64,000 nucleotides of DNA from Candidatus Uhrbacteria bacterium (GCA_026395055.1 JAPLZK010000003.1:35855-99854), one strand, 5' to 3'. Numbered from the stretch's first letter, positions 43,432-63,457 are shown. The notes: a model not told the origin generated them from the sequence alone. Program-made: numbers and translations.

Positions 43432-43505
43432 TACCCCAACAGAATTCTTTCAACGCAAAAACTGCTCTGTTGAGCAGTTGCGGGATCGATATCCAGTTGA
43501 TTGTA

Positions 43506-43580
43506 TGGCTCCGAGGGTGGGGATCGAACCCACGACCATCTCGTTAACAGCGAGCCGCTCTGCCGCTGAGCTACCTCGGA
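43506..43580 (-). tRNA. tRNA-Asn (anticodon GTT) with encoded CCA
   Basis: Reverse complement reads TCCGAGG-TA-GCTC-AGCGGCA-GAGC-G-GCTCG-CTGTTAA-CGAGA-TGGTC-GTGGG-TTCGATC-CCCAC-CCTCGGA-G-CCA. Confidence 0.8.
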
Positions 43581-44412: not shown

Positions 44413-47400
44413 GTGTTGTTGATTATGTCTCATCGAGATAAAAAAAATGAAAAGGGCGTGTGGTTTTTTGGCGCTGTCGCTTTTTTGTTTTTTCTTCTTC
44501 CTGGTTCGTTGTATGCCAAGTCTTTAACAGGGTTTTCTTTGCGTGCCCTCGAACATCCACTTTCTCAAGAGAAAACAGAAACTGTTTCACAAAATCAAAA
44601 GACAACACCGGTACAAGCGAGTGCGGATTTATTGCCAGTCGTTCAAAATGCGGAGTCATTAAAGACATATGTTGACGGGGAAGTGCTTGTGAAATTCAAA
44701 GACTCTGTGTTGAATTTAAGGGGTGGTCATAACGGTTCTCGATCCTTTGCATTTGCCTCCTCAAGAAACTTGGAGAAAAAAGAAGACGTCCCAAATAATA
44801 ACATCTCTCTATTTTCTTCAAGAAAAAATACAAAAGGACAAAGAGAGACGGTTCAACAAATGATGAATCGATTGCAAAAAGATCCAAGTGTCGAATCTGT
44901 TCAACCAAACTTTTTGTATGAAACAAAATCTATTGCTACAGACGATACATTCAAGAATTTATTGTGGGGTCTCGATAATACGGGGCAGGTTGTTGATTCC
45001 GTAACAGGAATAGCAGATGCAGATGTGGATGCGCCAGAAGCGTGGGCGATCAACGAAGGAACAAACGCGAGTGTGATCGTTGCGATTATCGACACGGGTG
45101 TTGCATATAATCATCCGGATTTGATTGGAAGCATGTGGGACGGAACGAATTGTGTGAGTGATACGAATACGGTGCTTGGAGATTGTAATCACGGTTACGA
45201 TTTTGAAGATTCCGATAAAACCCCTCTTCCAACGTCAAATACACACGGAACACATTTGGCCGGAACCATCGCGGCCATGAAAAATAATGGGAAAGGAATT
45301 ATTGGACTCGCGCCAAATGCAAAAATCATGGCGCTTAAGGTGGATCTTACAACATCGGAAATTATTAAGGCGATCAACTTCGCTAAGTTCAATGGGGCAA
45401 AGGTGATTAACGCAAGTTGGGGTGGTCCAGATTTTGATGCAGCCATGAAAGACGCAATCGATCAGTTTCCTGGATTGTTTGTTGCGGCAGCAGCGAACAG
45501 TGCACAAAACAATGATCTCATTCATAATTATCCTTCTGATTACACTTCCACGAACATTATTTCGGTTGCGGCCACAGACCAACTCGATCATTTAGCTTCG
45601 TTTTCAAACTACGGTGCGGTTTCTATTGATGTTGGAGCACCTGGAGTTAATATTTATAGTACGGTTGCAAACTCAACGGTGCTTGATCAAACATTTGAGG
45701 GGGTTGTGTCACCAAATGTTCCGAGTGGGTGGACGACAGCCGGAGAAGGTTCGGCGAACTGGGGTGTCTTTGGAATTACATCGCCTGATACGTATGGATT
45801 CGGATCAGTTTTGTACGGGGATAAAAACGTTCCGTATCTGAATAATGCAGATTCAACCATTGCACTTCCTGCAGTAGACCTTGGAACAGCTGTTCAGGGA
45901 GCCGTTCTTGATTTTACGTCGAGTTGTGATACGGACTTTGATCCTGGGTTGTCTTCTGACTACATGCAACTTGAAGTAAGTACGGATGGAACAACATGGG
46001 TTCCGGAAGGAGACCTTGGAAAATGGAATGAAGACGATTCAACCGTAAATTACGATGAGGTTGCATTTGATGCCACAAGAACATTCATTCATTTTTCTCA
46101 GCAAATTCCAAGCGCGTTTCTCACCGCAGGATTTACGCTACGATTTCGTTGGCATACAGATGCATCTGGTGTTTCGGATGACGGATGTTCCATCAATAAT
46201 TTACAAATCTTAACATTCTCTGATGGCTCAGATGAACTGTATGGATTCATGGATGGAACTTCCATGGCGACGCCGCATGTTGCCGCTCTCGCCGCTTTGT
46301 TGGGAGGATTTAATCCTGATTTAACTTCCGCACAAATTAAGAGTGCGATTTTATCTTCTGGCGATGCGCTTCCTGCTCTGAGTGGAAAAACGGTTTCGGG
46401 AAAAAGAATCAATGCGGCGCGTGCGCTGCAATCGGTGAACCCGGCAAAAGCAATCACCGCATTTTCTTTTGCAACTCCGTCTGTTGTGGGAGAGATCAAT
46501 GAAACAGATCACACAATCGCTCTGACGGTTCCATTTGGAACGGCTGTTACAGCCCTTGTTCCAACAATTGTGACGACGGGTGCTTCTGTGAGTCCATTGA
46601 GTGGGGTTGCACAAGATTTCACATCTCCTGTCACGTATGCTGTGACCGCAGGGAATGGTTCAATCCAAAATTATGTTGTGACCGTCACAATTGAGGTGGA
46701 TCCGAATATTGTTTTGGTTGCTGCAGACAAAGCGGCGCTTCTTGAGAGTGCGATCATTGGAACAAACGAGAATGTTTCTCATATCACGACAGCGCTCACA
46801 AATCCACTTCCGTCGACAGGTCTCGTAAATGGTTCGTTTATTACCTGGGCATCGAATCACACAAGTACCATCTCGAATGATGGACAAACCATTGTAAGAC
46901 CACCGTTTGCCGATGGAGATGTAACCGTTACATTAACCGCAACGATCACAAAAGGATCCGCATCGGATACGAAGATCTTTACACTTACCGTTTTGAAATT
47001 AGCTGCGAGTCCTATATCGACCGTCACTTCGAGTGCGTACACCGTTACAACAGGAGAAACACATAGTGAAACAATATCGGCCGTTCCGTTTGCAATAACA
47101 AAAACAAATTTCCTTGCTGCACTTACAAAAGGAGAGTCACATGAGGTTTGGGATAGTACATTCGTCACAGATCCTGTTGTGACGGGGAATGTTCTTGTTG
47201 TCACAGCGCAAGATGGTGTGACACAGGACACATATACGATTACAGCTGCATTAAATCCCGCAAAAGCCATTGCCGCATTTAACTTTGCCAGTTTTTCTGT
47301 CACAGGATCCATCAACGAGACCTCGCATACGATAACAGCAACGGTTCCAGCTGGGACCACTGTCACAGCACTTGTTCCTGCGATTGTTATTACGGGCGCA

Positions 47401-48228
47401 TCCATCAGTCCTCTCAATGACGTTGCTCAAGATTTTACGAATCCTGTCACGTATACCGTGACGGCTGCCGATGCTTCCATACAGACGTATGTGGTAACTG
47501 TTCGTGTTACAGCATCGAGTGGAGGCGGAGGCAGTGGAGGAGGCGGCGGAGGTGGGGGTGGTGGATCGATTGCTCCTCCACCAACTCCGGTGGTAACAAC
47601 GGTCCCTGCAAAATCAACCACATTAACGAGTCCTGTCTCGATTGTCTCTGCGTCAACAGATGCGGATACACTTGCGGGAATCAAAAAAGATTCGGAAGGA
47701 CATCGCGATGCGCCGTCAACGGCCGAGGTTGGATCTTCGCCATTCAGTCAGGTCGTTGAGCCGATTTCAAACGTGCAAACAGGTTGGCTTGTCCGTGCAA
47801 AGGGAAGTAATAGTGTGTATTACGTGGGAGCAGACGGGAAGCGTCATGTTTTTTGGAACACGCAATCGTATTTTTCTTGGTCAGACTCTTGGAATGATGT
47901 TGTGTGGATTACAGACGCAACACTCCCAACCCTCGCGTTCGGTGCGCCTATTTTGCCAAAGCAAGGAGTCGTTCTTGTAAAAATCGCGAGTGATCCAAAT
48001 GTGTACAAGGTGGAAAGTGATTTGGTGACGGGTGCACCGTATTTGAGAAAAATTACTTCCGAAGCAATTGCTATCCAAATGTATGGCGCACATTGGGCTG
48101 ATTATGTGATCGACCTTGAGCCAACATTGTTTACGCATTATGCACACGGAAAAGATGTTGTGACGGCGGAAGTGGTTGATACAAGCATTATGAAAACGCG
48201 GGCGCAAATCGCCGCATTGAGTCTGTAA
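44413..48228 (+). CDS. Giant secreted subtilisin-like serine protease (peptidase S8) with tandem repeat modules and a poly-Gly linker
   Basis: Signal peptide. Catalytic triad contexts 'VAIIDTGVAYNHPDL' (Asp), 'HGTHLAGTIAA' (His), 'GTSMATPHVAALAALL' (Ser). Two about 85-aa repeats ('NPAKAI[TA]AF.FA..SV.G.INET.HTI…YVVTV') at about 46438–46695 and 47260–47520. 'SSGGGGSGGGGGGGGGGS'. Confidence 0.8.
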   Translation: MLLIMSHRDKKNEKGVWFFGAVAFLFFLLPGSLYAKSLTGFSLRALEHPLSQEKTETVSQNQKTTPVQASADLLPVVQNAESLKTYVDGEVLVKFKDSVLNLRGGHNGSRSFAFASSRNLEKKEDVPNNNISLFSSRKNTKGQRETVQQMMNRLQKDPSVESVQPNFLYETKSIATDDTFKNLLWGLDNTGQVVDSVTGIADADVDAPEAWAINEGTNASVIVAIIDTGVAYNHPDLIGSMWDGTNCVSDTNTVLGDCNHGYDFEDSDKTPLPTSNTHGTHLAGTIAAMKNNGKGIIGLAPNAKIMALKVDLTTSEIIKAINFAKFNGAKVINASWGGPDFDAAMKDAIDQFPGLFVAAAANSAQNNDLIHNYPSDYTSTNIISVAATDQLDHLASFSNYGAVSIDVGAPGVNIYSTVANSTVLDQTFEGVVSPNVPSGWTTAGEGSANWGVFGITSPDTYGFGSVLYGDKNVPYLNNADSTIALPAVDLGTAVQGAVLDFTSSCDTDFDPGLSSDYMQLEVSTDGTTWVPEGDLGKWNEDDSTVNYDEVAFDATRTFIHFSQQIPSAFLTAGFTLRFRWHTDASGVSDDGCSINNLQILTFSDGSDELYGFMDGTSMATPHVAALAALLGGFNPDLTSAQIKSAILSSGDALPALSGKTVSGKRINAARALQSVNPAKAITAFSFATPSVVGEINETDHTIALTVPFGTAVTALVPTIVTTGASVSPLSGVAQDFTSPVTYAVTAGNGSIQNYVVTVTIEVDPNIVLVAADKAALLESAIIGTNENVSHITTALTNPLPSTGLVNGSFITWASNHTSTISNDGQTIVRPPFADGDVTVTLTATITKGSASDTKIFTLTVLKLAASPISTVTSSAYTVTTGETHSETISAVPFAITKTNFLAALTKGESHEVWDSTFVTDPVVTGNVLVVTAQDGVTQDTYTITAALNPAKAIAAFNFASFSVTGSINETSHTITATVPAGTTVTALVPAIVITGASISPLNDVAQDFTNPVTYTVTAADASIQTYVVTVRVTASSGGGGSGGGGGGGGGGSIAPPPTPVVTTVPAKSTTLTSPVSIVSASTDADTLAGIKKDSEGHRDAPSTAEVGSSPFSQVVEPISNVQTGWLVRAKGSNSVYYVGADGKRHVFWNTQSYFSWSDSWNDVVWITDATLPTLAFGAPILPKQGVVLVKIASDPNVYKVESDLVTGAPYLRKITSEAIAIQMYGAHWADYVIDLEPTLFTHYAHGKDVVTAEVVDTSIMKTRAQIAALSL

Positions 48229-49489: not shown

Positions 49490-52159
49490 ATGGTGTTGGA
49501 TATCCATGGTTTGTTGATTGCTGTTATACTATCTCTATTCATCTCGATACTTCTCGAGTTAACACACATTATGAAATTATTCCTCAGGGTTTCTTGGATA
49601 CCTGTTTTTTTGTTTGCTTTATTCATGACACCTATTGCACATGCTGCAACAGCACCATCGCTCGGAGCTGCGGATCCGTACGGCGTGCTTACGTATCTTT
49701 ATGGTCGCTTCGGACTTCCGGGTCCTGTGATCACGGGAGATTTTGGATATACCATTTTAACCGGGACATCACCTATGCCGGTTGTAAGTGGTGCAACACA
49801 CGTGGCGGATGGGACCTATACTCAGGCAGAGACAGATGGACATACAGCATGGGTTACACTCGAGGATTCATCCATCAATCCTTGTACATACACGTTTACC
49901 GGAAGTTCCATCGATCTTGCAACAAAAGATGTGGGAAGCGGAGTTGGAATTTATCCTCCTGGTGTTTATTGCGCGGGCATGGCCACAACAATCGTAAACA
50001 TTGGTGCAGCAGGAATAAAACTCAATGGCAGTGGGACGTATATTTTTCGATTTGATGGCGGGGTTCTCTTCACAAGTCCATTTTCTGTGGTGACCATGCA
50101 AAATGGTGCATCGTCTTGTGGAGTCTTCTGGCTTCCAGATGGTCCGGCGATTCTTTCGAGTTTTGGTCATGATTCAACGTTTGTCGGTACGGTTTTTTCA
50201 CATGACGGGTATAACGTCAATGATGGCGTGACCTGGTACGGAAGAGCCTTAACGCTTGGTGGAGGAACTGTGAACATGGCGTCCGATGAAATTGTAACAG
50301 CACCAACGGGTTGTACGCCACCACCACCACCACCACCACCTGCAACCGGAACGCTTCATGTGATCAAACAATTTTATAATGATTATGGCGGCACGGCAGT
50401 AGCATCGGATGCGAATGTTCATGTAAAAAATGGAGCAGGAGATATTGTGGGAAGTCCACATGCAGGTTCTCTTGCGCCAGGAACGCTTTATACCGTGAAT
50501 GCAGATACGTATATTGTGAGTGAAGATACATTCTTAGGATACACTCCAACCATTGGTGGAGATTGTGATGCGACGGGTCATGTGACCATCGGATCCGGTG
50601 ACAGTAAAACGTGTATCATCGCAAACGATCAAAATCCACCACCAACACCAAGTTCTGCAACGCTTCACGTTATCAAACATGTCGTAAACAACAATGGTGG
50701 TTCATCTGCAGCATCTTCATTTACGCTCCATGTAAAAGGTTCTGGGGGAATGGGTGTAAGTGATGTGTCAGGAAGTCCGGCAGCGGGTGCGGAGTCTCCG
50801 GGGGTTTCTTACACACTCCTTCCAGGAGCATTCGTTGTAAGCGAAGATACATTCTCGGGATACACTTCAACATTCAGCGGAGATTGTGACGCAACAGGTC
50901 ATGTTACACTCGCATCAAGCGATCATAAGACGTGTACCATTACGAATACGGACATTGCTCCATCCGGACAAAAACTTCCTTCAATACCTGCCACGTTGCA
51001 TGTGATGAAGATTGTCACAAATGATAATGGTGGAAAGGCTATTGTTTCAGATGCGGTCATTCATGTTATGAGTGGAGCCGGAGATGTTTCTGGAAGTCCA
51101 CATGCGGGTGCAAGTACACCAGGGACGGCTTACACACTTGATCCGGGAATCTACACAGTGAGTGAAAACTTTTTTCCAGGCTACACCGTAAAAATTGGCG
51201 GAGATTGTAATGATAGTGGAAACGTAACCCTTGCGGCGGGTGATTCAAAAACGTGTACGATCACAAATGATGACATTGCCGCGCCTGTCGTTCCTCCTCC
51301 ACCCACGATTATCACCCCTGTAACGGTAACACCGGCAACATGTGATATTTGCTCTCGTCTTACATACGATCTTTACATCATCAATCCAGATAAGTCCGAA
51401 CGTCACACAGGAACAGCCTGGGTGCGCGTGACAGATCGCGGAAATGGAATTAAGAGATATTCGTTTGAGGATGCCACGCTTGATCCACACAATCCATTGT
51501 TTGACTATAACGATTCTGTGATTGATGTGGATTACACGGACTGTAAGAATACGAAGTTTATGTTTGTGAGTTCGGATGCTTCGTGGAAACATCAAGTTCG
51601 CATTAAAGTTTCTATCGACGGAGCTGCACAATCAGATACGCTCGTTGTCGATGATTCAAAAGCGGTTGTTGGAACCATGAAGGCGATGAATGTGACAACG
51701 GGTGTGAACGCAAAGACCGCTTGTACTACGCCCCCTTCAACAACATCTTCTGGTTTGAAGGGAAAAATCCTCCTTCAAGTACAGTCGCATGGAGAAGCGT
51801 GGTACATTCATCCCATTTCAGGATCACGTTATTACATGAAAGATGGGGTGACCGCTTATGGCATGATGCGTAAGTTTGGTGTTGGAATCACAGATAAAAA
51901 TTTACTGCTTATTCCAAGCGTTGCATCGGTTGCCGAGTTAAAGGCCTCAACAAGTATTTGTCCAACAAATAGCGCGGCAAAAAATCAGGCAGGAAAAATC
52001 ATGCTTCAGGTTCAACAACATGGAGAGGCCTGGTATGTGGATGCGGGAAAATGCAGACGTATTTATTTGAAGGATGGAGCGGCAGCCTATTCCGTCATGC
52101 GTTTCCTTGGGCTTGGAATCACAAATGCAGATCTCGAGAAGATGAAGATCGGATCGTAA
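49490..52159 (+). CDS. Secreted surface protein: N-terminal DUF3494 ice-binding-like β-helix domain, three about 120-aa prealbumin/Cna-B-like repeats, two C-terminal about 50-aa repeats
   Basis: Signal peptide. 'GAADPYGVLTY…GDFGYTILTGT…GVYCAGMATTIVNIGAAGIKLNGSGTYIFRF…TLGGGTVN'. Repeats starting 'TLHV[IM]K' at about 50276, 50645 and 51000. 'GKI[LM]LQVQ.HGEAWY' repeats at about 51760 and 51995. Confidence 0.6.
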   Translation: MVLDIHGLLIAVILSLFISILLELTHIMKLFLRVSWIPVFLFALFMTPIAHAATAPSLGAADPYGVLTYLYGRFGLPGPVITGDFGYTILTGTSPMPVVSGATHVADGTYTQAETDGHTAWVTLEDSSINPCTYTFTGSSIDLATKDVGSGVGIYPPGVYCAGMATTIVNIGAAGIKLNGSGTYIFRFDGGVLFTSPFSVVTMQNGASSCGVFWLPDGPAILSSFGHDSTFVGTVFSHDGYNVNDGVTWYGRALTLGGGTVNMASDEIVTAPTGCTPPPPPPPPATGTLHVIKQFYNDYGGTAVASDANVHVKNGAGDIVGSPHAGSLAPGTLYTVNADTYIVSEDTFLGYTPTIGGDCDATGHVTIGSGDSKTCIIANDQNPPPTPSSATLHVIKHVVNNNGGSSAASSFTLHVKGSGGMGVSDVSGSPAAGAESPGVSYTLLPGAFVVSEDTFSGYTSTFSGDCDATGHVTLASSDHKTCTITNTDIAPSGQKLPSIPATLHVMKIVTNDNGGKAIVSDAVIHVMSGAGDVSGSPHAGASTPGTAYTLDPGIYTVSENFFPGYTVKIGGDCNDSGNVTLAAGDSKTCTITNDDIAAPVVPPPPTIITPVTVTPATCDICSRLTYDLYIINPDKSERHTGTAWVRVTDRGNGIKRYSFEDATLDPHNPLFDYNDSVIDVDYTDCKNTKFMFVSSDASWKHQVRIKVSIDGAAQSDTLVVDDSKAVVGTMKAMNVTTGVNAKTACTTPPSTTSSGLKGKILLQVQSHGEAWYIHPISGSRYYMKDGVTAYGMMRKFGVGITDKNLLLIPSVASVAELKASTSICPTNSAAKNQAGKIMLQVQQHGEAWYVDAGKCRRIYLKDGAAAYSVMRFLGLGITNADLEKMKIGS

Positions 52160-52162: not shown

Positions 52163-52197
52163 CAAAAAAGATTCAACCCATGTTGAATCTTTTTTAT
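52163..52197. terminator. Bidirectional terminator (agattcaac ccatg ttgaatct + T-run) between convergent genes
   Basis: Perfect hairpin with A/T runs on both sides. Confidence 0.7.
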
Positions 52198-53330
52198 TGG
52201 AAGATCTTTTGGAATTGTTTTTGGTACGTTTTCCAGGTATGTGTGAGAATATCTTGTCTTCGTTTGAGTCCTCTTTGTTCACAGATAAAATCCAGGAACG
52301 GCTTTGATCGGGTTGGTGTGCTCTCTCGATATAAACGCATGAGGAACCAGAGATTTCCAAATGGATGGAAACGCTGTTCATTGCTTGAGTTTACATAGGC
52401 GATTTGTTTTTCGTTTGAAACGGATCGGTTTGAGAGGTTCTTGAGAAATGATTCGGGAAAATTCACGTTGAATGTTTTCACGAGATAGGAGCAAGCGGTT
52501 TGCATTTCGATCACACAATCGTGTTCGATTGTGTGTAAAAGCAGTTTCTGCCAGTCGATGGGTTGGTTCTTTATAAGCGTAATCGCATCAACGACCCATC
52601 GGAGTGTTCGATGCGTGTTATATTCAGCGCCGTGGACAATGACATGGATGAGAAGATCTTCTGTGCACGGCATGAGGCATTGTGTGGATTGTATCTCGAG
52701 TGGAACCGCATTTTTCCAGATCAACTCTGAAGACATTTTGTGTTCGTTCTCAAAAATTCTCCAATGAAGATCAATTTCGATTTCATGATCATTTACGAAG
52801 CTGACTTCATGAAAGTGTTTCAAGATGGATTCGTAAGACAGATTGCGTGTAGAAGGGTAGAGATGTCCTTTTGGGACGCAGCTGTACGCATGAAGAACTT
52901 CCATAGCTCGAAGCGCATCGGCAGGGTGTACAAGAAGATCAATATCGCCAGAGAAACGTGCGCCAGGATTTTTGTAGGCCGTGAGCAAAAGCGGAACGCC
53001 TTTCATGAGAAGAACAGGAATGTTTTGTTTTTCGAGAAGTTCGACAACCTGTCGTGTGCTTTCGAGAAGACGTTGGTTTTTATACCATGCGTATCGATAC
53101 ACGCCTTTGATACGACCGACGAGAGAGTCTTCGATCTTTAACGACTGCAATCGCAAATACAAAAGGGGAAGCAGTCTCATGGTGGCGTGGTCGATATTGT
53201 CGAAGACGACGCGAGACTTCCATTCTTCCCATAACGCTCGAAACGCATCGTTATGACTCAAAACAAGCTTGAGGAAAAGCTCTTCTTCGCTATTTGGAAA
53301 ACTAGATGGATAGATTTTCACGGATGTCAT
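52194..53330 (-). CDS. Uncharacterised nucleotidyltransferase (PF14907/NTP_transf_5-like)
   Basis: 'RFSGDIDLLVHPAD' (hG[GS]…DhDh nucleotidyltransferase signature). 378 aa. Last gene of the operon. Confidence 0.55.
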   Translation of the reverse strand: MTSVKIYPSSFPNSEEELFLKLVLSHNDAFRALWEEWKSRVVFDNIDHATMRLLPLLYLRLQSLKIEDSLVGRIKGVYRYAWYKNQRLLESTRQVVELLEKQNIPVLLMKGVPLLLTAYKNPGARFSGDIDLLVHPADALRAMEVLHAYSCVPKGHLYPSTRNLSYESILKHFHEVSFVNDHEIEIDLHWRIFENEHKMSSELIWKNAVPLEIQSTQCLMPCTEDLLIHVIVHGAEYNTHRTLRWVVDAITLIKNQPIDWQKLLLHTIEHDCVIEMQTACSYLVKTFNVNFPESFLKNLSNRSVSNEKQIAYVNSSNEQRFHPFGNLWFLMRLYRESTPTRSKPFLDFICEQRGLKRRQDILTHTWKTYQKQFQKIFQ

Positions 53331-53336
53331 ACAAGA

Positions 53337-54029
53337 TTAATCGACAGCAGCGGTTCTTTTTCGGCGGAGAGATTCACGAATGACTTTGAGATAATCATTG
53401 CGAGATGCGCGATCGCGAACGCCTGTGTTTGTTTCATGAATGCGACGTTTGAGAAGAATATCTTCTAGACAGACATAAGTTAATCCGAGTTCTTTTGCGC
53501 GCTCAAACCAATCCATAAACTCTCCGATGCTCCATCGCGGATTTAATTCACCTACGCGGTGAAAGGATGTTGTCTTGATCATGACGGCGGGTGAGAGAAG
53601 TGCTGGGGTCGCAACGGGTGGACAGTACCGAAGGGCTTTGATCTCGTCCGACAATTCTGGACTTAAAAAATTACGCATGTAGCAAAAGCAAATGTCGAGG
53701 TTTGGATCTTGCTCGAAACGATTCCGTTGCAGCTCAAGTTTGTTTGGTTCCCATAAATCATCTGCATCCATGAACGCAAGATATTCGCCCTGTGCTACAC
53801 GAATTCCTTGATTGCGTCCTTCTGCGATTCCCAGATTTTCTTTCGAGCGAATAATCGTGATGCGGTCTCCAAATGATTCGAGAACAGCGAGTGAGTCATC
53901 GGTTGATCCGTTATCAATGCAAATCAGTTCGATATTGTTATGTGTCTGCGCTAATACACTATCGACAGATTCGGCAACATATTTTTCCGTATTGTAAACG
54001 GGCATGATGATGGAAATCAGGGGAGGCAT
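53337..54029 (-). CDS. Glycosyltransferase family 2
   Basis: 'ISIIMPVYNTEKYVAESVDSVLAQT', 'IDNGSTDDS', 'FMDADDLW' (DxD). Confidence 0.8.
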   Translation of the reverse strand: MPPLISIIMPVYNTEKYVAESVDSVLAQTHNNIELICIDNGSTDDSLAVLESFGDRITIIRSKENLGIAEGRNQGIRVAQGEYLAFMDADDLWEPNKLELQRNRFEQDPNLDICFCYMRNFLSPELSDEIKALRYCPPVATPALLSPAVMIKTTSFHRVGELNPRWSIGEFMDWFERAKELGLTYVCLEDILLKRRIHETNTGVRDRASRNDYLKVIRESLRRKRTAAVD

Positions 54030-55141
54030 AGAACTGTTTTTATGACATTCGGTACATTCTCGATAGGTAATCCGAGTTCAAGAATGTAACACGGGGTTTT
54101 CTCGATAATTCGTTTGAGTGCGCTGAGTTGATGCGTGCCTGCGAGTGGAAGTTGAAACAGAGTGGTGGGAGTGAGTGCGAGCATTGCCTCCAATTTTGTT
54201 GCGGGAATGATGCGCGTTGATGCACCATCGATAATGCGCGGAATGAGAATCGCAGCGAGTGATGCGTGTTGTTTTACTTGTGCTTCGAGAATCTCGGAGA
54301 AGAACACAATCGCCTTGTCTTCTGGTTTGTGATTTGGATTTACAATGTGTTTCTTAAGAAGAGGGAATTGCGCGATTGTTCGATCGTCCACCTTTGCAGA
54401 GTTATAGAGGCTGTGTGCCACAATAGTCTTGCCCGACTCGATGCCTACGTAATCGTCGCCAAGATAGTTCATGCCTGCGAGAACAGATGCAATTGCCGTT
54501 GTCGACTTGCCTGATCCTCCTTTTGCGGAGAGGAGAACGGCTCGATCATCAACTCCGATCACGGCACCATGAATGAGGTGGATGTTTGAACGCGAAAGAA
54601 ACCAATGGAGAATTGGGCGAATAGGCGCAGCACTGAGCCAATCCGGCAAAAGATTCGCGTCGCGTGTCCAGAAGTAAGCGGTACGATTCTTGGTGTCGTA
54701 TAAGTTTAAGGTTTGTTCACCGCTGAGGAAAATTCCCAAGAATTGATCAGTGATCTCTGTGTTTGTTTGTGTTTCGAGGATGAACTGATGTGATGTATGT
54801 TCGAACGGAGAAGGAATAGAGGTTTTTGTTGAAACAGAATCCCAGAGATGAACCGTGAGGTCTGGTTTTTCGACAGCTTCTCCCTCGAGATGCATGAGTG
54901 CGTGTGAAAGCTTTTGAAGAAGTTGTTCTGAATAGAACGATAAACAGATTTTATTTCCGCCGATACAGTAGTTCTTTCTGATCGGTATTGTGTTTCGAGC
55001 CACTTTCGAGAATGTTGGTCTCACAATTTCATCAAAATACACACGTGTAATGCGTGTGAAGTTTGGAACGACAAGATGTTTCGTTGGTTCAGGCATGTAA
55101 TCGATTGCGTTCTCGTTGTAGTTTTTTTCGAAAGGCTTCAA
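54017..55141 (-). CDS. HprK-related P-loop kinase-like protein
   Basis: C-terminal half 'IHGAVIGVDDRAVLLSAKGGSGKSTTAIASVLAGMNYLGDD' resembles the HPr kinase C-domain P-loop. N-terminal half unassigned. Real start may be M at 55096. Confidence 0.5.
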   Translation of the reverse strand: MKPFEKNYNENAIDYMPEPTKHLVVPNFTRITRVYFDEIVRPTFSKVARNTIPIRKNYCIGGNKICLSFYSEQLLQKLSHALMHLEGEAVEKPDLTVHLWDSVSTKTSIPSPFEHTSHQFILETQTNTEITDQFLGIFLSGEQTLNLYDTKNRTAYFWTRDANLLPDWLSAAPIRPILHWFLSRSNIHLIHGAVIGVDDRAVLLSAKGGSGKSTTAIASVLAGMNYLGDDYVGIESGKTIVAHSLYNSAKVDDRTIAQFPLLKKHIVNPNHKPEDKAIVFFSEILEAQVKQHASLAAILIPRIIDGASTRIIPATKLEAMLALTPTTLFQLPLAGTHQLSALKRIIEKTPCYILELGLPIENVPNVIKTVLCLP

Positions 55142-55766
55142 TTCTTCCTTTTACGCTGACTTCATTTGCATTCGTCATGTTCGATGCATGCCTGCGGCAG
55201 AGAACGGTTGTGGCATCAACGCGTTTTTCTATACATCTTGCCTCTTCGAATCGCATTCTCCAATCCAGATCTTCCCCTTGTCGCATTGTTTCATCAAAGA
55301 GGCCAACACGATCGAAGACAGATGTTCGAAAGAGCGCCGAGCCTAAGAGTTCGAGGGCAAAGAATTTTTTTGTGATTTCCGTTCGTTTATTTTCAACCGA
55401 TCGAAAGAATTGAGAGAAACCACGTGCTGTGTCGTATGGTTCATTCTGAAGAAGATGCGGTAAGAGCGATTGAATATGATGGTGTGTCCAAAGATCGTCT
55501 GCGTCGAGGAAGCCGAGGATGGTGCCTTTTGCGTGTTTGATTCCCGTGTTGCGTGCCGCGGATTGTCCCTGGTTAGCTTGCGTGATCACTCGGATCCGAT
55601 CGGTATACGTCTTGAGAATCTGGGCTGTGTTGTCTGTCGAACCATCATTCATGACAATAACCTCGAGATTTGGATATTGTTGCGCGAAGACAGACTCAAG
55701 TGCATGCGAGATATGACGCTCGCCATTGTAGACAGGGATAATCACCGAGATGAGCGGATTGTTCAT
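55089..55766 (-). CDS. Glycosyltransferase family 2
   Basis: 'ISVIIPVYNGERHISHALESVFAQQ', 'MNDGSTDNT', 'FLDADDLW'. Confidence 0.8.
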   Translation of the reverse strand: MNNPLISVIIPVYNGERHISHALESVFAQQYPNLEVIVMNDGSTDNTAQILKTYTDRIRVITQANQGQSAARNTGIKHAKGTILGFLDADDLWTHHHIQSLLPHLLQNEPYDTARGFSQFFRSVENKRTEITKKFFALELLGSALFRTSVFDRVGLFDETMRQGEDLDWRMRFEEARCIEKRVDATTVLCRRHASNMTNANEVSVKGRIEAFRKKLQRERNRLHA

Positions 55767-55773
55767 AGCCGAT

Positions 55774-56196
55774 TTACTTAAGTGTTGGCCAACCCACCGC
55801 GTCTACATCATGAATCGGATCCGCAAGAAGCATTTCCTGCATGTCTTCATATTTTTCGATCTTGGGTGTGAGGAATGTTTCTTTTATTGTTACGGGATTC
55901 TCGAGAAGAGTGCTTGTGAGATCCGTTTCGAGAATCAGATCTTCATTTAATAAAAATAATGTAAGATCAGATAGGCTTTGCTTGATTTCGTCTACGTTCG
56001 CTTCGTAACGAGCTAAAAAGGCATTCACGATTTGTTCGAGCGAATGGTTTTTGGCAAGGAGCTCCCAGGCAACAGATCCCGATGTGTTCATGCTGTAGTA
56101 GTTTCCGTTTTCGAGGTTGATGATGATCGTTTCGCCATCCAAGGTCTCGTTGATGACTTTTTGGTCGTTAATGCGATAGGTTTGTATTCCGGACAT
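55774..56196 (-). CDS. PqqD-family protein (RiPP recognition element-like peptide chaperone)
   Basis: 'INETLDGETIIINLENGNYYSMNTSGSVAWELL…SLEQIVNAFLARYEA…LSDLTLFLLNEDLI' matches the PqqD/RRE winged-helix pattern. First gene of the operon. Confidence 0.6.
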   Translation of the reverse strand: MSGIQTYRINDQKVINETLDGETIIINLENGNYYSMNTSGSVAWELLAKNHSLEQIVNAFLARYEANVDEIKQSLSDLTLFLLNEDLILETDLTSTLLENPVTIKETFLTPKIEKYEDMQEMLLADPIHDVDAVGWPTLK

Positions 56197-56244
56197 AGGC
56201 GCGAGCTTAGATTGAATGTCCGTATCATTATAAGGGAATACTGT

Positions 56245-56275
56245 GTTTTCGCAATGAAAAGATGTGAATGAAATT
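56245..56275 (-). promoter_or_regulatory. Promoter for the PqqD operon (TTGCGA-N16-TATAAT on the minus strand)
   Basis: Read on the reverse complement of the 56197–56312 intergenic region. Confidence 0.4.
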
Positions 56276-58466: not shown

Positions 58467-58611
58467 TGCAAATGCGGAAATAATCAACCAAAGAGATACA
58501 TGTTTTCTGCCATCCATCTCCGGATGGTTTTTGTTTTGGTCAGAAGATTGACACAAACGGCTTTCTTCTGTAGAATTGCGTGATTCTGTTAATCAACAGA
58601 GCGAAAAAAAT

Positions 58612-59199
58612 ATGTTTAAACGAAATAACGGATTTGCTGGCAAATCCTTCGGAAAGAGAGACGGGGGGCCCGTCACCATGCACAAAACGTCTTGTGCTCA
58701 GTGTGGAAACTCCTGTGAGGTTCCATTTAAGCCAAACGGAAAAAAGCCAGTATTATGTGGCGATTGTTTCCGTAAAGACGATAACGGCGGAGAACGATCA
58801 GAGCGTTCAGAACGTCCTTCTTATCGTTCAAACGACCGATCCGAATCAAAGTACTCAAAATTTGATGATTCAAAGCCTTCCTACCCAGCAACGTGTGGAG
58901 AATGTGGCGCACGCTGCACCGTTCCATTTAAGCCAATGCAAGGAAAGCCAGTGAAGTGTCGTGAGTGTTTTGTTCCTGGAGATCGTCCATCTGCGGGAGG
59001 ATCAGGAGCGGGAATGTCTCAAGAACAGTTTCAAATGTTGAACACAAAATTGGACTCCATTTTGAAAGCGCTTGGAACATACGTTTCAACCCCAAAACGC
59101 TTGAAAGAGCCAACAGATGAATTCTCCCTTGAAGTCGACACGACTCCAACAGAAAAGCCAGAAAAGAAAGCTTGGGCAAAGCTCAAGTACAAAAAGTAA
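58612..59199 (+). CDS. Protein with two tandem CxxC…CxxC zinc-ribbon modules and an Arg/Ser-rich linker
   Basis: 'CAQCGNSCEVPFKPNGKKPVLCGDCF' and 'CGECGARCTVPFKPMQGKPVKCRECF'. Start chosen at MFKRNNGF (track 58576). Bidirectional terminator 59203–59240. Confidence 0.45.
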   Translation: MFKRNNGFAGKSFGKRDGGPVTMHKTSCAQCGNSCEVPFKPNGKKPVLCGDCFRKDDNGGERSERSERPSYRSNDRSESKYSKFDDSKPSYPATCGECGARCTVPFKPMQGKPVKCRECFVPGDRPSAGGSGAGMSQEQFQMLNTKLDSILKALGTYVSTPKRLKEPTDEFSLEVDTTPTEKPEKKAWAKLKYKK

Positions 59200-59250: not shown

Positions 59251-60171
59251 TTAGGCCTTTTTGATTTTTCGCACAAGATGTCCGGTGCCGTTCCAGACAT
59301 CTCGCAAGAAGCCTCGCATGAAGATGAAGAGGAAAAGCGTAAACGTCCATGTGCGATACTGATCCGCAAGCCATGGGCTTGCGACACGCAGCATGCTTTC
59401 CGTAGCGTGTCCGCCATCGAGTGGGGAGATCGGGATCAGATTGAAGCTGTTCATGACGATGCAGAGGAGGTAGAAGACGATCGAGAGCGATACAAAACCC
59501 GGTTTGGTCGCCACAATGTTACCCATTGTATTTGACAGATGGTACCAGGATTCGATTTCTCCAGCAGGCGCGGAACGTTTTTCTGCTTCTACCATTGGTT
59601 CCTCCGATGTTTTTTCCGTCATGGTGCCTGTTGCGACATCAACTTTTATGGATACGCGCTCCACTTCTTTCTTCACGGGTTTCTTTCCGCTACGAATGAG
59701 TGATGGAACAATGATGCACACAAGGAAGATCCATGCCCCAAAAGATGCGAGGAAGGCGAATCGCCATCGACCACCACCTTTCATGAGTTTGCCAGGCCAC
59801 TTTTTGAAAAAGGACAGGTTCTCTTGGAGAATTTTCTCGGCGAATCTGCCGAACACGATTCCGACTAAGAAGAAGAGAAAGAGTATGGAGAACAACATGC
59901 CACCGAGATCGATGAGTACGTGAACTTGGGTTGAGGCTTGCTTGAAGCCATCGCCCAGTTCGTTGTATCCGCCAAGGGGAATTGGTCCAAGACTGAACGT
60001 GGTTCCAAGCCATGTTCCAATCGTAAAAATGCTTGGCCCAAACCCGATTTGGAATTTGGTGACAGGCACATGAAAGAGCTGAGCCATGATAAAATGACCA
60101 AATTCGTGAATAACGATGACGCTCGAAAACATCATGATCAATAGTGCCATCTGAACGATTTTCCGCTGCAT
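59251..60171 (-). CDS. Site-2 protease family zinc metalloprotease (peptidase M50)
   Basis: 'HEFGH' in the first TM helix, and polytopic. Start may be the internal MALLIMMF. Confidence 0.7.
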   Translation of the reverse strand: MQRKIVQMALLIMMFSSVIVIHEFGHFIMAQLFHVPVTKFQIGFGPSIFTIGTWLGTTFSLGPIPLGGYNELGDGFKQASTQVHVLIDLGGMLFSILFLFFLVGIVFGRFAEKILQENLSFFKKWPGKLMKGGGRWRFAFLASFGAWIFLVCIIVPSLIRSGKKPVKKEVERVSIKVDVATGTMTEKTSEEPMVEAEKRSAPAGEIESWYHLSNTMGNIVATKPGFVSLSIVFYLLCIVMNSFNLIPISPLDGGHATESMLRVASPWLADQYRTWTFTLFLFIFMRGFLRDVWNGTGHLVRKIKKA

Positions 60172-60227: not shown

Positions 60228-61220
60228 ATGCCTTCTGTCAATGATTTTCCGCTTCGAATTCAGAGATGCTATACTGAGGCAGACTTCATACGTATGCAAC
60301 AAACACACAAACGTTTTTTTCTTTTTATTACCCTATTGTCTTTTGCTTTGGCCGGGATTTTTTTGTTTATCGTTTTTCAAACAAATCCTCGTTATGAAGA
60401 AAAATCTTTGACGGAGGGAGAGAAACAATCGGCTGGGCCTTCCGAGCAGTTTGCCGAATCACAATTTACCAAGCGGTTGCCGGTTGCAAAGAACAAAGTA
60501 AACCCCAATGATTTTGTTGTCCCGATTCTCATGTATCATCACATTGGCGTGAACACAGATGTATCCGACAAGATTCGTGATGACCTGACCGTTCCACCAG
60601 ATCAGTTTGAAGCGCAGGTCGCATGGCTTGCAAAGAACAAATATCATTCCGTCACTTTGGAAGATGTTTATCTCCATGCAGAAGGGAAGTTGAAACTTCC
60701 CTCAAACCCTATCGTGTTTACATTTGATGACGGGTACGATGACGCCATCTTGAATGCGGTTCCCATTTTAAAAAAGTATGGGGATGTCGGCAGCTTCGCG
60801 ATCATCACACAATGGCCTGGAACAACGAGCGGGTCGAATACATACGCCACATGGGATCAAATCAAAACGGCTATGAATCAAGGGATGGAAATCGTTTCGC
60901 ATACACAGAATCATTTTGATGGAACAAATCCAACCGTAACAAAGGAGTATGTTCTCAAAGATTTGAAAGGTTCCGTGATGGATTTAAAGAATCATCTCGG
61001 TATCTCATCTGATCTGTTGATTTATCCGTATGGGCATTACAATGCGGATTACATTGCTGCGGCAGAAGAAGCAGGCTTTGTCATGGGTGTCACAGTTCAT
61101 GAGGGTGCGGTGGTTGATCCGGATGTTCTCATGGAAATTCCACGCATTCGCGTGCATGGGCGCGAGGAACTCAAGCGGTTTCAGAATATTTTGTGGGGAG
61201 CTAAACATGTTTCGCTATGA
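60228..61220 (+). CDS. Polysaccharide deacetylase (CE4/NodB homology domain) with N-terminal TM anchor
   Basis: 'VPILMYHHIG', 'FTFDDGYDD', 'VSHTQNH', 'LIYPYGHY'. Confidence 0.7.
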   Translation: MPSVNDFPLRIQRCYTEADFIRMQQTHKRFFLFITLLSFALAGIFLFIVFQTNPRYEEKSLTEGEKQSAGPSEQFAESQFTKRLPVAKNKVNPNDFVVPILMYHHIGVNTDVSDKIRDDLTVPPDQFEAQVAWLAKNKYHSVTLEDVYLHAEGKLKLPSNPIVFTFDDGYDDAILNAVPILKKYGDVGSFAIITQWPGTTSGSNTYATWDQIKTAMNQGMEIVSHTQNHFDGTNPTVTKEYVLKDLKGSVMDLKNHLGISSDLLIYPYGHYNADYIAAAEEAGFVMGVTVHEGAVVDPDVLMEIPRIRVHGREELKRFQNILWGAKHVSL

Positions 61221-62737: not shown

Positions 62738-63457
62738 ATGTCACATATTCCAAAACACATCGGTATTATCATGGATGGTAACAGACGTTGGGCAAAAGAA
62801 CGTGGATTAACGGCAAGTGAGGGGCATATGGCTGGTGTTGAGAATCTCACTACGCTGCTTGAGGCATGTGCAAATCGCGGCATTGAGACCGTAACGATTT
62901 ACGCGTTTAGTACAGAAAATTTTAAAAAACGCAGTCGCAAAGAAATTGCTGCACTCTTTGGATTAGTGGGTGTTTGGCTACAACGTAAGTCAAACGAGAT
63001 GAAAGAGAAAGGTGTGTGTCTTGCGTTTCTTGGGGATCTCTCGAAATTGCCCGAACGATTGCAACACAAGATTAACCATGCCGTCGAAGTGCTGAAAGAC
63101 AACGAGCGCATCAAATGCAACATCCTCATGAACTACGGTGGTCGCCCAGAACTCGTGAATGCGTTTAAAGAAATTGTGAAGAGCGGAATCGCCGCAGATG
63201 AAATCAATGAAGAATTGATTGAACAACATTTGTATACAAAGGGTCAGTCTGATCCAGATCTCATGATTCGCACGGGGGGAGAAATGCGCGTGAGCAACTT
63301 CCTCATCTGGCAACTCAGCTATTCGGAATTATATTTTACCGATACGTACTGGCCGGACTTTAATGAAGTTGAACTCGATAAGGCACTCGCGGAATATTCA
63401 CGACGTGAACGTCGATTGGGGGGAGATGTTATCGCCGAAGCAGTAAAATCCATCTAG
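62738..63457 (+). CDS. uppS: Undecaprenyl-diphosphate synthase (cis-isoprenyl transferase)
   Basis: 'HIGIIMDGNRRWAKERG', 'TIYAFSTENFKR', 'RTGGEMRVSNFLIWQLSYSELYF'. Confidence 0.9.
   Translation: MSHIPKHIGIIMDGNRRWAKERGLTASEGHMAGVENLTTLLEACANRGIETVTIYAFSTENFKKRSRKEIAALFGLVGVWLQRKSNEMKEKGVCLAFLGDLSKLPERLQHKINHAVEVLKDNERIKCNILMNYGGRPELVNAFKEIVKSGIAADEINEELIEQHLYTKGQSDPDLMIRTGGEMRVSNFLIWQLSYSELYFTDTYWPDFNEVELDKALAEYSRRERRLGGDVIAEAVKSI

Follow-up and report, generated by a model that had tools for sequence, protein, structure and literature searches.

The operon at 52194-56196, on the minus strand of a 64,000-nt stretch of a Candidatus Uhrbacteria bacterium genome (GCA_026395055.1 JAPLZK010000003.1:35855-99854; the window), was found by ORF calling to comprise five tightly packed genes, which encode a PqqD-type RRE protein, a GT2 glycosyltransferase, a P-loop kinase, a second GT2 and a PF14907 protein. 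A sequence-only reading had presented it as an atypical peptide-modification-like system without any precursor, which raises the question of what these enzymes act on. Our analysis partly supports that reading: the operon is a complete copy of a widespread module that combines four families (a tailed PqqD RRE, an HprK/PEPCK-like kinase, at least one GT2 and PF14907), and the peptide that seemed to be "missing" as a substrate appears to be fused to the RRE protein itself.

Operon architecture and enzymes

The features of the operon are the following:

56227..56254, minus strand: candidate sigma-70-like promoter (TTGCGA-16-TATAAT, 10/12 consensus matches) in the 116-nt divergent intergenic region
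55774..56196, minus strand: PqqD-family RRE protein with a conserved C-terminal tail, 140 aa (PF05402, E=4e-12)
55089..55766, minus strand: first GT2 glycosyltransferase, 225 aa, soluble, DADD motif (PF00535, E=1e-35)
54017..55096, minus strand: HprK/PEPCK-like P-loop kinase, 359 aa from its ATG (alternative TTG start at 55141, giving 54017-55141)
53337..54029, minus strand: second GT2 glycosyltransferase, 230 aa, DADD motif (PF00535, E=1.6e-38)
52194..53330, minus strand: PF14907 (NTP_transf_5) nucleotidyltransferase-fold protein, 378 aa (PF14907, E=3.4e-43)
52163..52196, minus strand: terminator-like hairpin followed by a U-run (-15.5 kcal/mol, z=-6.15), starting at the PF14907 stop codon

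With the kinase starting at its ATG (M 55096), as in the public record (P0001, 359 aa, 100% identity), the first and second genes are 7 nt apart, the genes overlap by 8 and 13 nt at the next two junctions, and 6 nt separate the last two genes, confirming the packing within 13 nt that had been described. The single promoter-like element and the single terminator described with it were also recovered. The promoter candidate is put forward on its consensus match, such sites being no more frequent in the region than in shuffled sequence, while the downstream hairpin is strong, with 0 of 200 shuffles folding equally well. Since A and T tracts flank both sides of this hairpin, which overlaps the PF14907 stop codon, the terminator is probably bidirectional. 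The operon products are apparently cytoplasmic.

All five domain assignments were borne out. The RRE protein (46.7 bits against PF05402, cut-off 23.4), the two GT2s (123.6 and 132.7 bits against PF00535, cut-off 23.3, each with a DxD motif) and the PF14907 protein (148.5 bits, cut-off 31.2, with a GDID motif at D129/D131 read from the sequence) all score above their Pfam cut-offs. The two GT2s are 32% identical to each other and reach no NCBIfam equivalog cut-off. The kinase matches Pfam Hpr_kinase_C (PF07475) weakly (19.4 bits, cut-off 33.3) and TIGR00679 (HPr kinase/phosphorylase, whose substrate is HPr Ser46) at 16.7 bits against a cut-off of 240, but its assignment is backed by TIGR04352, its best NCBIfam match (E=4e-12, 45.9 bits, below the 200-bit cut-off), by a family profile that matches HprK crystal structures (E=1e-6, the P-loop region alone aligning) and by an overall fold like that of PEPCK. 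Family-wide, the kinases keep the Walker A motif GGSGKSTT and a DDY motif. Since the two-domain fold as a whole comes nearer to ATP-PEPCK, this enzyme may have a small-molecule substrate.

Neither the 116-nt upstream region nor the rest of the operon holds a plausible precursor ORF, and no cyclase, peptidase or radical-SAM gene is encoded in the operon. The absence of the lasso core was confirmed by a Pfam scan, which detected neither the Asn-synthetase-like lasso cyclase nor the transglutaminase-like leader peptidase (B2) among the operon genes and their window neighbours; neither enzyme family is recurrent in 50 related loci or in Pfam-annotated relative neighbourhoods. The closest peptidases in the window, an M50 (59251-60171) and an S8 (44413-48228), are unrelated neighbours. 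The five operon proteins matched no PADLOC anti-phage defence model, and no relative of the cassette was found on viral contigs.

The C-terminal tail of the RRE protein

The closest solved structure to the AF2 model of the RRE protein (mean pLDDT 80.6) is, as the top Foldseek match, the lasso B1 RRE TbiB1 (5v1v; rmsd 0.9 Å, 29% identity). The best NCBIfam matches of this protein, and likewise those across 11 family members, are lasso PqqD chaperone models. The protein of the window nonetheless stays under the curated lasso_PqqD cut-offs, scoring 48.6 bits where 80 is required and 30.8 where 70 is. Together with the PsmK/PsmN precedent considered below, these matches uphold the likeness of the RRE, kinase and PF14907 trio to kinase-containing lasso clusters that had been pointed out. 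The RRE protein divides as follows:

55924..56181, minus strand: RRE (winged-helix PqqD) domain, aa 6-91, pLDDT about 90
55882..55923, minus strand: variable linker rich in S/T/P/A/E, aa 92-105, the least conserved segment (majority-residue frequency 0.19)
55846..55881, minus strand: leader-like segment ETFLTPKIEKYE, aa 106-117, with [FY]xxPx[LIV], indicated by its fixed position and co-variation
55786..55845, minus strand: most conserved segment DMQEMLLADPIHDVDAVGWP, aa 118-137 (majority-residue frequency 0.70 vs 0.42 in the RRE domain)

Family-wide, the linker is enriched in S+T (18% vs 12% elsewhere) and P (12% vs 4%). The tail that follows it fits the consensus [FY]xxPx[LIV]xx[YF]xDMxxLLLxDPIH[DE]V..GWP in every PqqD of the family and is conserved in each phylum sampled. 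D118, D126, P127, H129, G135, W136 and P137 are invariant in 66 homologues, these residues being D, P, H, G and W, and the tail has no conserved Ser/Thr. Its first part matches YxxPxL, the leader motif recognised by lasso B1 RREs (PMC6784204), and [FY]xxPx[LIV] precedes DPxH by exactly 18 residues in 99 of 120 and 40 of 47 homologues, against 5-6% of shuffles. This likeness to a leader is at the motif level only: matched to the paeninodin precursor, the tail profile scored 2.5 bits, which shuffled sequences equal. The residue at the -2-equivalent position is Glu, and the sequence downstream is conserved.

Secondary structure and co-variation suggest that the RRE would bind its own tail in cis, where lasso RREs bind the leader. 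A β-strand is predicted directly after the tail Pro in two independent models, at residues 113-116 in AF2 (pLDDT about 80), whose model leaves residues 125-140 disordered. The DPIH..GWP segment is of low confidence even when kinase-fused (pLDDT 57-66), with no docking site identified. The tail co-varies with RRE helix α3 at S/D74-F/Y108, F81-I113 and E85-K115, bearing in mind that kinship among sequences can inflate such signals: D74 pairs with Y108 (33 D-Y vs 3 D-F), and positions 85/115 form an acid-base pair in 208 of 271 sequences. If the RRE holds its own tail, a separate precursor gene would not be needed. The earlier statement that the operon lacks a precursor is right as regards a separate ORF, but it is probably misleading, since the RRE protein carries a leader-like motif and about 20 conserved residues in cis.

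Distribution of the module and possible substrates

What had been described as an atypical operon is not a one-off but a conserved cassette: the PqqD-kinase-GT2 (1-7 copies)-PF14907 module is spread over more than 12 phyla. Of the 35 loci with sufficient flanking sequence, 29 carry members of all four families. Among 53 loci, 45 have PqqD immediately upstream of the kinase, 50 have one or more GT2s and 43 have PF14907, while the five-gene order is identical in two of the three relatives first inspected (L001 and L005). The 38-aa tail alone matches 1154 representative clusters (50% identity, E<=1e-3), nearly all of them PqqD+tail proteins of 120-190 aa. Natural fusions unite PqqD-tail with the kinase (more than 100 clusters), PqqD-tail with a GT2 (P0312) and a GT2 with the kinase (P0004). 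The minimal conserved set consists of the four families only, and relatives often carry extra genes for GT4 enzymes, TPR-GTs, sulfotransferases or an MsbA-like ABC exporter. No member of the module reaches a curated NCBIfam cut-off, and we found no published description of the cassette. We regard the module as widespread, uncharacterised and akin to the set of tailoring enzymes in those lasso-peptide clusters that contain a kinase.

One alternative, the main idea of the sequence-only reading, is classical RRE-guided RiPP or protein tailoring in trans, in which a precursor peptide or protein encoded elsewhere in the genome would displace or flank the tail on the RRE and then be phosphorylated and glycosylated. 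The RRE fold is intact; MsbA-like exporters of about 570 aa, similar to the ABC transporters found in lasso clusters, are encoded within or beside the cassette at about 13 loci, among them those of the nearest Patescibacteria relatives (L007 and L008); and a stand-alone 56-aa tail gene in front of a kinase on one metagenomic contig indicates that the tail can be a separate peptide. However, no conserved small ORF occurs in or near the cassettes among 50 loci, co-variation places the tail in the expected binding site, and it would be unusual for a substrate in trans to be kept across more than 12 phyla without ever being linked to the cassette. The giant secreted proteins and the zinc-ribbon protein that had been suggested as substrates are not conserved partners of the cassette, which leaves that suggestion unsupported. 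We regard a substrate in trans as unlikely.

The tail could also give rise to a small conserved metabolite or cofactor, which would be cut out of the RRE fusion before glycosylation. In this way PQQ derives from PqqA and mycofactocin from MftA, and the cores of such cofactor-type RiPPs are highly conserved, as is the distal tail; the GT2s resemble the mycofactocin glycosyltransferase MftF below threshold (80.8 bits vs 280). This similarity is nevertheless generic to GT2 proteins, no peptidase, radical-SAM enzyme (including radical-SAM/SPASM partners) or oxidase is conserved in the cassette, and the tail is internal in many fusion proteins, so that we find this origin highly improbable. More generally, the tail is conserved far beyond usual RiPP cores and, being internal in fusion proteins, is unlikely to be a released product.

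A third possibility is an envelope-glycoconjugate pathway, in which the enzymes would modify an acceptor other than a peptide (such as a sugar, a lipid or a growing polysaccharide) and yield, for example, a side chain attached by a phosphodiester or a cap that ends the chain; the tailed PqqD would then be a mere adaptor or regulatory subunit that has lost peptide recognition, its groove filled by its own tail. Several loci fit this picture. In L005, the PF14907 protein carries a fused Polysacc_synt (Wzx-type) domain, and the genes around the cassette encode Bac_transf, three more GT2s, Wzy_C, an epimerase and a CTP_transf_like protein, while the L061 cassette adjoins MBOAT, Acyl_transf_3 and ABC2_membrane plus ABC_tran/Wzt_C genes. 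A Wzt-like ATPase lies near L010 and L027, and epimerases or a GlcNAc 2-epimerase lie near the cassette in L002 and L060. The presence of up to seven GT2s, with GT4s and sulfotransferases, suggests that the glycan is sizeable; the two-domain fold of the kinase resembles PEPCK; and the window itself encodes a polysaccharide deacetylase (60228-61220) and UppS (62738-63457) within 7 kb. On the other hand, a Wzx/Wzy- or ABC-dependent polysaccharide locus was found beside a minority of cassettes (L005, L061) and not in the window operon and its flanks; initiating phosphoglycosyltransferase, flippase and polymerase are absent near most cassettes, including that of the window and its closest relative (L001), and the conserved minimum is merely the four families. 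Such a pathway also leaves unexplained an RRE with a strictly conserved leader-like tail beside the kinase in almost every locus. TPR-bearing multi-GT proteins, which are compatible with a protein or peptide acceptor, occur in three relatives and, with the PsmK/PsmN precedent, favour peptide or protein acceptors. Embedding in exopolysaccharide loci, which if consistent would have refuted the sequence-only reading by its own criterion, is seen in a minority of relatives and not throughout. The envelope alternative therefore still stands, and we judge it possible though doubtful.

Proposed mechanism and comparison with known systems

The reading that we favour, at roughly an even chance, is that a lasso-tailoring toolkit of the PsmK/PsmN type, combined with GT2s and a self-liganded RRE, would build a phospho-linked glycan. 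PsmK acts first, as a kinase, after which one or two hexoses are added to the phosphate by PsmN, an uncharacterised NTP transferase whose DxD double mutant D134A/D136A is inactive (PMC6993621). The roles of the kinase, PF14907 protein and GT2s are inferred from this analogy, and we propose that the PF14907 family may include PsmN. While the RRE holds its own tail, the conserved distal tail would be presented to the cassette enzymes; the kinase would phosphorylate a hydroxyl group, as does PsmK, the PF14907 protein would add a first hexose onto the phosphate, as does PsmN of pseudomycoidin, and the two GT2s would extend this hexose into a short phospho-linked oligosaccharide. Candidate acceptors are the RRE protein's own tail/linker or a non-peptide envelope molecule. 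The linker/tail may be the simplest, because the RRE protein is the sole non-enzyme among the conserved genes, and this protein would then be a self-contained scaffold or carrier. In relatives, the product may often receive more sugars, from GT4s and TPR-GTs, as well as sulfate groups, and be exported by an MsbA-like ABC exporter.

The P-loop kinases of the HPr-rel-A system (HprK-related kinase A, TIGR04352), presumably also paired with a PqqD-like protein, and of the GAK system (HprK-related kinase B, TIGR04355) are distantly related to that of the cassette. The kinase scores 45.9 bits against 200 for the former (ten other family members, 18-49 bits) and 17.4 against 200 for the latter (relatives, 20-40 bits), and the PqqD models of these systems have no match in the cassette. 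SynChlorMet similarly pairs an HprK-like protein (ScmC) with a PqqD-like one (ScmD), and kinase relatives carry a faint precomputed Pfam label, PF27840 'ScmC', but scores are low (ScmC 12.4 bits vs 125, ScmD 26.1 vs 100) and the radical-SAM gene is absent. In E. coli O9a, WbdD, a eukaryotic-like kinase/methyltransferase, provides a kinase-dependent step in an ABC-transporter O-antigen pathway with Wzt; there too a glycan is the target of a kinase, and exporters of the Wzm/Wzt type adjoin some cassettes (L061, L010). That pathway, however, includes neither an RRE nor a PF14907 protein, the cassette kinase is HprK-like, and most cassettes lack Wzm/Wzt. Glycocins (SunS) and mycofactocin (MftB/MftF) share with the cassette a GT2-family enzyme in a peptide-derived pathway, yet they lack the kinase and PF14907 steps and encode their precursors in genes of their own, and the GT2s score 30.5 bits against a SunS cut-off of 350. 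RRE-GT2 fusions have been noted in RRE-Finder surveys.

The lasso tailoring sets that we compared are paeninodin PadeK/PadeB1, pseudomycoidin PsmK/PsmN and the GT2-bearing Butyrivibrio clusters. Unlike these clusters, the cassette has no cyclase, B2 protease or separate precursor gene with YxxPxL, Thr at -2 and a variable core: its leader-like motif is fused to the RRE, its tail is conserved rather than variable, and no Thr occupies the -2-equivalent position. Its GT2s are obligatory (1-7 copies) and its kinase bears an extra N-terminal domain of about 170 aa. Like kinase-containing lasso clusters, it combines a B1-type PqqD RRE, an HPr-kinase-like enzyme, a DxD nucleotidyltransferase and a YxxPxL-type motif, and, as in some of them, GT2s accompany the kinase and nucleotidyltransferase: lasso clusters of Butyrivibrio contain GT2 genes alongside those for an HPr kinase and a nucleotidyltransferase (PMC7533575).

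The window operon and its relatives

Re-analysis of the window confirmed the observation of a five-gene operon, with five minus-strand ORFs located exactly where a sequence-only reading had placed them:

55774-56196, minus strand: PqqD protein (PF05402 family match in Pfam, E=4e-12, above gathering score)
55089-55766, minus strand: GT2 glycosyltransferase (Pfam, E=1e-35, above gathering score)
54017-55096, minus strand: kinase (ATG start, as in the public record; TTG at 55141 is an alternative)
53337-54029, minus strand: second GT2 (Pfam, E=1.6e-38, above gathering score)
52194-53330, minus strand: PF14907 protein (Pfam, E=3.4e-43, above gathering score)

The genes are tightly spaced: counting from PqqD, a gap of 7 nt comes first, then overlaps of 8 nt and 13 nt, and a gap of 6 nt precedes PF14907. 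A TTGCGA-16-TATAAT element, which is a consensus match only, is found in the divergent intergenic region of 116 nt, and a 15-bp hairpin with a U-run after it starts at the PF14907 stop codon (-15.5 kcal/mol, z=-6.15). The domains had also been called correctly, as verified with Pfam for the PqqD protein, both GT2s and PF14907, and with other matches for the kinase. On the latter, Hpr_kinase_C stayed sub-threshold in Pfam (19.4 bits vs a gathering score of 33.3), and the call is supported by a match to TIGR04352 "HprK-related kinase A" (E=4e-12, far under its cut-off), by a match, in the P-loop region, between the kinase family profile and HprK crystal structures (E=1e-6) and by the superposition of both kinase domains of an AF2-modelled fused homologue on ATP-dependent PEP carboxykinase (E ~1e-9). 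The two GT2s share 32% identity and each has a DADD motif; the PF14907 protein carries GDID at D129/D131, which would correspond to D134/D136 of the pseudomycoidin NTP transferase PsmN. By inspection, signal peptides and membrane segments are apparently absent from all five proteins, so that their chemistry would be cytoplasmic, and the operon includes no exporter. The ORF and domain search found no plausible precursor ORF, cyclase or peptidase in the operon, as had been claimed.

The operon had been viewed as atypical, and the uniqueness that this implies needs to be corrected since it is one copy of a cassette that is widespread in >12 phyla. Many groups have homologues of the kinase, among them Patescibacteria and Deltaproteobacteria (Smithella). 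The locus of a relative with 67% identity (L001) has the five genes in identical order, a deltaproteobacterial MAG has PqqD-kinase-GT2-PF14907, and another five-gene locus (L005) lies within a polysaccharide locus and carries a fusion of PF14907 with a Wzx-like Polysacc_synt domain. With one genome scanned per species, 49 loci were then obtained from Acidobacteriota, Actinomycetota, Bacteroidota, Chlamydiae, Chloroflexota, Cyanobacteria, Gemmatimonadota, Planctomycetota, Verrucomicrobiota and Alpha-, Beta-, Gamma- and Deltaproteobacteria, including cyanobacterial isolates such as Anabaena sp. UHCC 0187 and Synechococcus sp. ATX 2A4. When the five window proteins were mapped by jackhmmer onto all stop-to-stop ORFs of the loci, nearly all of them showed the order PqqD-kinase-GT2(n)-PF14907: in 45/53 loci, the kinase gene is immediately preceded by PqqD on the same strand, at least one GT2 (1 to 7 copies per locus) is found in 50/53 and PF14907 in 43/53, and among the 35 loci with sufficient flanking sequence, 29 have the complete set of four families. 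A ~570-aa MsbA-like ABC exporter is encoded in or beside the cassette in ~13 loci, including the closest Patescibacteria relatives L007 and L008; other accessory genes encode GT4s (~17 loci), sulfotransferases (~9), short-chain dehydrogenases (~6) and large TPR-GT2_4-GT2 or TPR-GT2_4-GT4 proteins (three loci). No recurrent lasso cyclase or B2 protease family was detected around the related cassettes. A defence-system or phage origin was considered and rejected, as the cassette proteins had no PADLOC match and no relatives were seen in viral contigs. The open-access papers that we searched do not describe this cassette.

In one Bacteroidota MAG (L011), the cassette is interrupted between a GT2 and the kinase by genes for a restriction enzyme of the Tsp45I type and for an N6/N4 DNA methylase (5227-7141).

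A leader-like tail on the PqqD protein

The window PqqD protein has 140 aa and its PqqD domain ends near residue 91, followed by a variable linker (92-105) and then by ETFLTPKIEKYEDMQEMLLADPIHDVDAVGWPTLK. This tail follows the consensus [FY]xxPx[LIV]xx[YF]xD[ML]xxLLLxDPIH[DE]V..GWP, which was found in every phylum sampled, and D118, D126, P127, H129, G135, W136 and P137 are invariant among 66 homologues. The mean frequency of the majority residue is highest at residues 118-137 (0.70), compared with 0.42 in the RRE domain and 0.19 in the linker. Used alone in a phmmer search of 1.84 billion cluster representatives, the 38-residue tail retrieved 1154 clusters at E<=1e-3, nearly all of them PqqD+tail proteins of 120-190 aa; this is a lower bound on the number of family clusters at 50% identity. 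S, T, P and A are over-represented in the linker, with Ser or Thr present in 246 of 260 sequences, a composition that is common among linkers in general.

The first part of the tail has the form of YxxPxL, the lasso leader-peptide motif that is recognised by B1 RREs (PMC6784204); the paeninodin precursor PadeA, which starts with MKKQYSKPSLEVLDVHQTM followed by AGPG…, gives an example of a lasso leader (PMC11594732). A [FYW]xxPx[LIVMF] motif is found exactly 18 residues ahead of DPxH in 99/120 and 40/47 sequences, compared with 5-6% of shuffles. Homology of the tail with PadeA itself was rejected, since the tail profile scored 2.5 bits on this precursor, no better than on shuffles, and leader likeness is therefore claimed only for the motif and for the predicted binding mode.

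In the AF2 model of the window PqqD protein (mean pLDDT 80.6), the RRE superposes on leader-bound TbiB1, a lasso B1 RRE (5v1v), within 0.9 Å at 29% identity. The tail is predicted to form a β-strand (113-116, pLDDT ~80) directly after the Pro and then a short helix (119-125), with the final 16 residues disordered, and the same strand and helix appeared in a natural fusion protein that was modelled independently (pLDDT 91.8). Contacts between RRE and tail were tested by co-variation, using mutual information with APC correction on 271 sequences. S74-F108, F81-I113 and E85-K115 were among the strongest RRE-tail pairs, ~6 standard deviations over the background of all distant pairs, and S74, F81 and E85, the partners on the RRE side, all lie in helix α3 or at its end. 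Asp74 goes together with Tyr108 (33 D-Y vs 3 D-F), and positions 85 and 115 form an acid-base pair in 208/271 sequences. Such pairs are expected if the tail strand runs along α3, where RREs hold leader peptides. Since A125 and M122 pair with many columns, as a clade marker would, and since shared ancestry can inflate co-variation scores, we take these signals as supporting evidence rather than as proof that the tail strand lies along α3, at the leader-peptide site. A docking site for the distal tail on the kinase was not supported, as DPVH..GWP reached only pLDDT 57-66 in the AF2 model of a natural PqqD-kinase fusion.

Two variants of the tail were observed. In two Gemmatimonadota loci (L034, L038), it retains YxxPxLxx[YF]xDMxxLLALDP, with PMPGL… in place of IH..GWP; no other lineage in the sample lacks the His and Trp, which are invariant elsewhere. 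In one protein of 284 aa (P0274), the whole PqqD+tail unit is in tandem, with a degenerate first tail (…FIAPRLMRFNDIQMMLVANPLKF…) and a canonical second one.

Natural fusions and the search for a substrate

Components of the cassette occur fused to one another: PqqD-tail-GT2 (P0312, 367 aa), GT2-kinase (P0004, 584 aa) and, in >100 clusters, PqqD-tail-linker-(second, truncated PqqD-like domain)-kinase proteins of 580-870 aa, one of them in the isolate Synechococcus sp. CBW1004. The operons of the PqqD-kinase fusions read PF14907-[PqqD-kinase]-GT2-PF14907-GT4. Judging from these fusions, the tailed RRE probably acts in a complex with the kinase and a GT2. The tail is internal in the fusions, so that a free C-terminus is not needed, which argues against a released RiPP product; a cofactor-like product excised from the tail is, in our estimate, very improbable.

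A large subfamily of fusions, represented in Synechococcus sp. CBW1004 (L060 10001-11872) and at L061 10001-12403, has one to three PqqD-like domains before the kinase and a strand-plus-helix segment after each of them. In the unfused window kinase, the N-terminus (…RITRVYFDEIVRPTF…) is similar to the segment after the last PqqD-like domain of the fusions (…IRVHHELEAIMRPW…), a likeness that hints that the kinase N-terminus may itself be an RRE ligand.

Conserved small ORFs were searched for among ORFs of 15-110 aa in and around 50 cassettes with blastp-short and by listing all ORFs within 600 nt ahead of each PqqD gene, and nothing but artefacts of low complexity or of alternative frames came up. 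Except for a frameshifted PqqD gene in L024, the tail HMM found no extra or stand-alone tail copy in the loci. The claim that the operon has no precursor stands for a separate precursor and needs correction insofar as a leader-like tail is fused to the RRE. A precursor encoded in trans, on which the RRE would act, appears unlikely. A 56-aa tail-only gene (L056 773-943, …HFVAPCLHKYTDMQELLLIDPIHDVDDYGWP…) immediately precedes a kinase-like gene on a single 1-kb metagenomic contig, where a divergent acetyltransferase takes the place expected for the PqqD domain. It is the only stand-alone tail gene that looks genuine: the others in the 1.84-billion-protein set were mostly fragments of full-length proteins, the L057 peptide came from a frameshifted low-coverage long-read contig and that of L058 was cut by a contig end.

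Neighbouring genes of the operon in the window code for a secreted protein of 889 aa, a subtilase of 1271 aa and a protein with tandem treble-clef zinc fingers. The giant secreted proteins and the zinc-ribbon protein had been put forward as possible substrates, a proposal that we rejected because these neighbours are not syntenic with the cassette beyond its closest relative, L001.

The 889-aa protein (49490-52159, convergent with the operon) has an Ice_binding-like domain, repeated SpaA_2 prealbumin-like domains with poly-Pro linkers between them and two C-terminal repeats (…LQVQSHGEAWY…); it is missing at the syntenic position in L001 and is thus not linked to the cassette. The subtilase (Peptidase_S8, 44413-48228) has aBig_2 and DUF5018 domains, and giant surface proteases of this kind are typical of CPR genomes. 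Two treble-clef zinc fingers (PF23477) are encoded at 58576-59199 and at 3341-3916 of L001; this protein, a PIF1 helicase, a SET-domain protein and an Abhydrolase_11 protein are syntenic with the cassette only in L001. The divergent UvrD-like helicase at 56313-58139 matches NERD+UvrD and GajB-type defence helicases in PADLOC (E down to 9e-21), and no partner gene was identified for it. Further away, a GC-rich segment (38001-43580, 0.55 vs ~0.45 elsewhere) carries two ORFs without a Pfam match, a tyrosine integrase (40974-42233), a serine recombinase (42415-43431) and then tRNA-Asn (43506-43580), and looks like a mobile element integrated at a tRNA gene.

Proposed chemistry and kinship with known systems

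Pseudomycoidin biosynthesis is the sole precedent linking these enzyme types. There, PsmK, a kinase of the HprK family, adds a phosphate to the C-terminal Ser of the peptide and the uncharacterised NTP transferase PsmN is needed to add one or two hexoses onto that phosphate, the D134A/D136A mutant of PsmN being inactive (PMC6993621). In Butyrivibrio, lasso clusters are accompanied by GT2, HPr-kinase and nucleotidyltransferase genes (PMC7533575). By analogy, the cassette kinase would put a phosphate on a hydroxyl group, PF14907 would join a first sugar to that phosphate and the two soluble GT2s would lengthen the sugar chain. The variable numbers of GTs and sulfotransferases in the relatives would fit a lineage-specific oligosaccharide.

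As the only non-enzyme among the four conserved families, the tailed RRE protein gives the simplest hypothesis for a scaffold or acceptor. We tentatively propose that it combines RRE, leader and acceptor in one chain, that its own linker or tail is phosphorylated and that PF14907 and the GT2s build a phosphodiester-linked oligosaccharide on it, as a protein-primed line derived from lasso-tailoring enzymes. If true, this line would be conserved from CPR bacteria to cyanobacteria and coupled to export in some lineages. However, no Ser/Thr is conserved in the tail, AF2 did not dock the distal motif on the kinase, and the modelled kinase fold would also fit a small-molecule substrate. A non-peptide envelope acceptor, with the PqqD protein as an adaptor, is a possible but doubtful alternative: four loci (L005, L061, L010, L027) and the number of GTs speak for it, whereas priming and export genes are absent from most loci and the tailed RRE is strictly retained. 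The window genes for UppS (62738-63457) and for a polysaccharide deacetylase (60228-61220), both within 7 kb of the operon and outside it, bear on this alternative.

RREs are treated as markers of RiPP clusters with a separate precursor gene, and "precursor-less" matches are usually discarded in genome mining. A large RRE family with a leader-like ligand fused in cis challenges this equation, and the fused tail gives both a concrete reason for such matches and a testable substrate hypothesis. The RRE-tail family is large and phylogenetically broad, spanning >12 phyla that include genome-reduced Patescibacteria and the isolate Synechococcus sp. CBW1004; the chemistry and the acceptor of the cassette are what we infer. 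To our knowledge, the only functional clue to PF14907 so far was hexose addition to phosphoserine in pseudomycoidin, and the cassette would provide a second, far more widespread setting for working out the function of PF14907 enzymes. A protein or peptide acceptor would make it a widespread bacterial phosphoglycosylation system, and an envelope glycan an unexpected non-RiPP use of an RRE.

Compared with known systems, the cassette is not a member of HPr-rel-A, GAK or SynChlorMet by their curated cut-offs; none of the 11 family kinases and none of the 11 family PqqD proteins reached the curated NCBIfam cut-offs, and the best matches of the PqqD domains were always the two lasso PqqD-chaperone models. 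Of the four features that define a lasso cluster, it lacks three, namely the cyclase, the B2 protease and a separate precursor. The sequence-only interpretation thus holds for the domains and the lasso kinship, and not for uniqueness, the lack of any precursor-like element or the neighbouring substrates. Functionally, the cassette comes closest to the tailoring branch of lasso clusters that contain a kinase, as a lasso-type RRE/kinase/PF14907 toolkit to which GT2s are permanently joined and in which a leader-like element is fused to the RRE.
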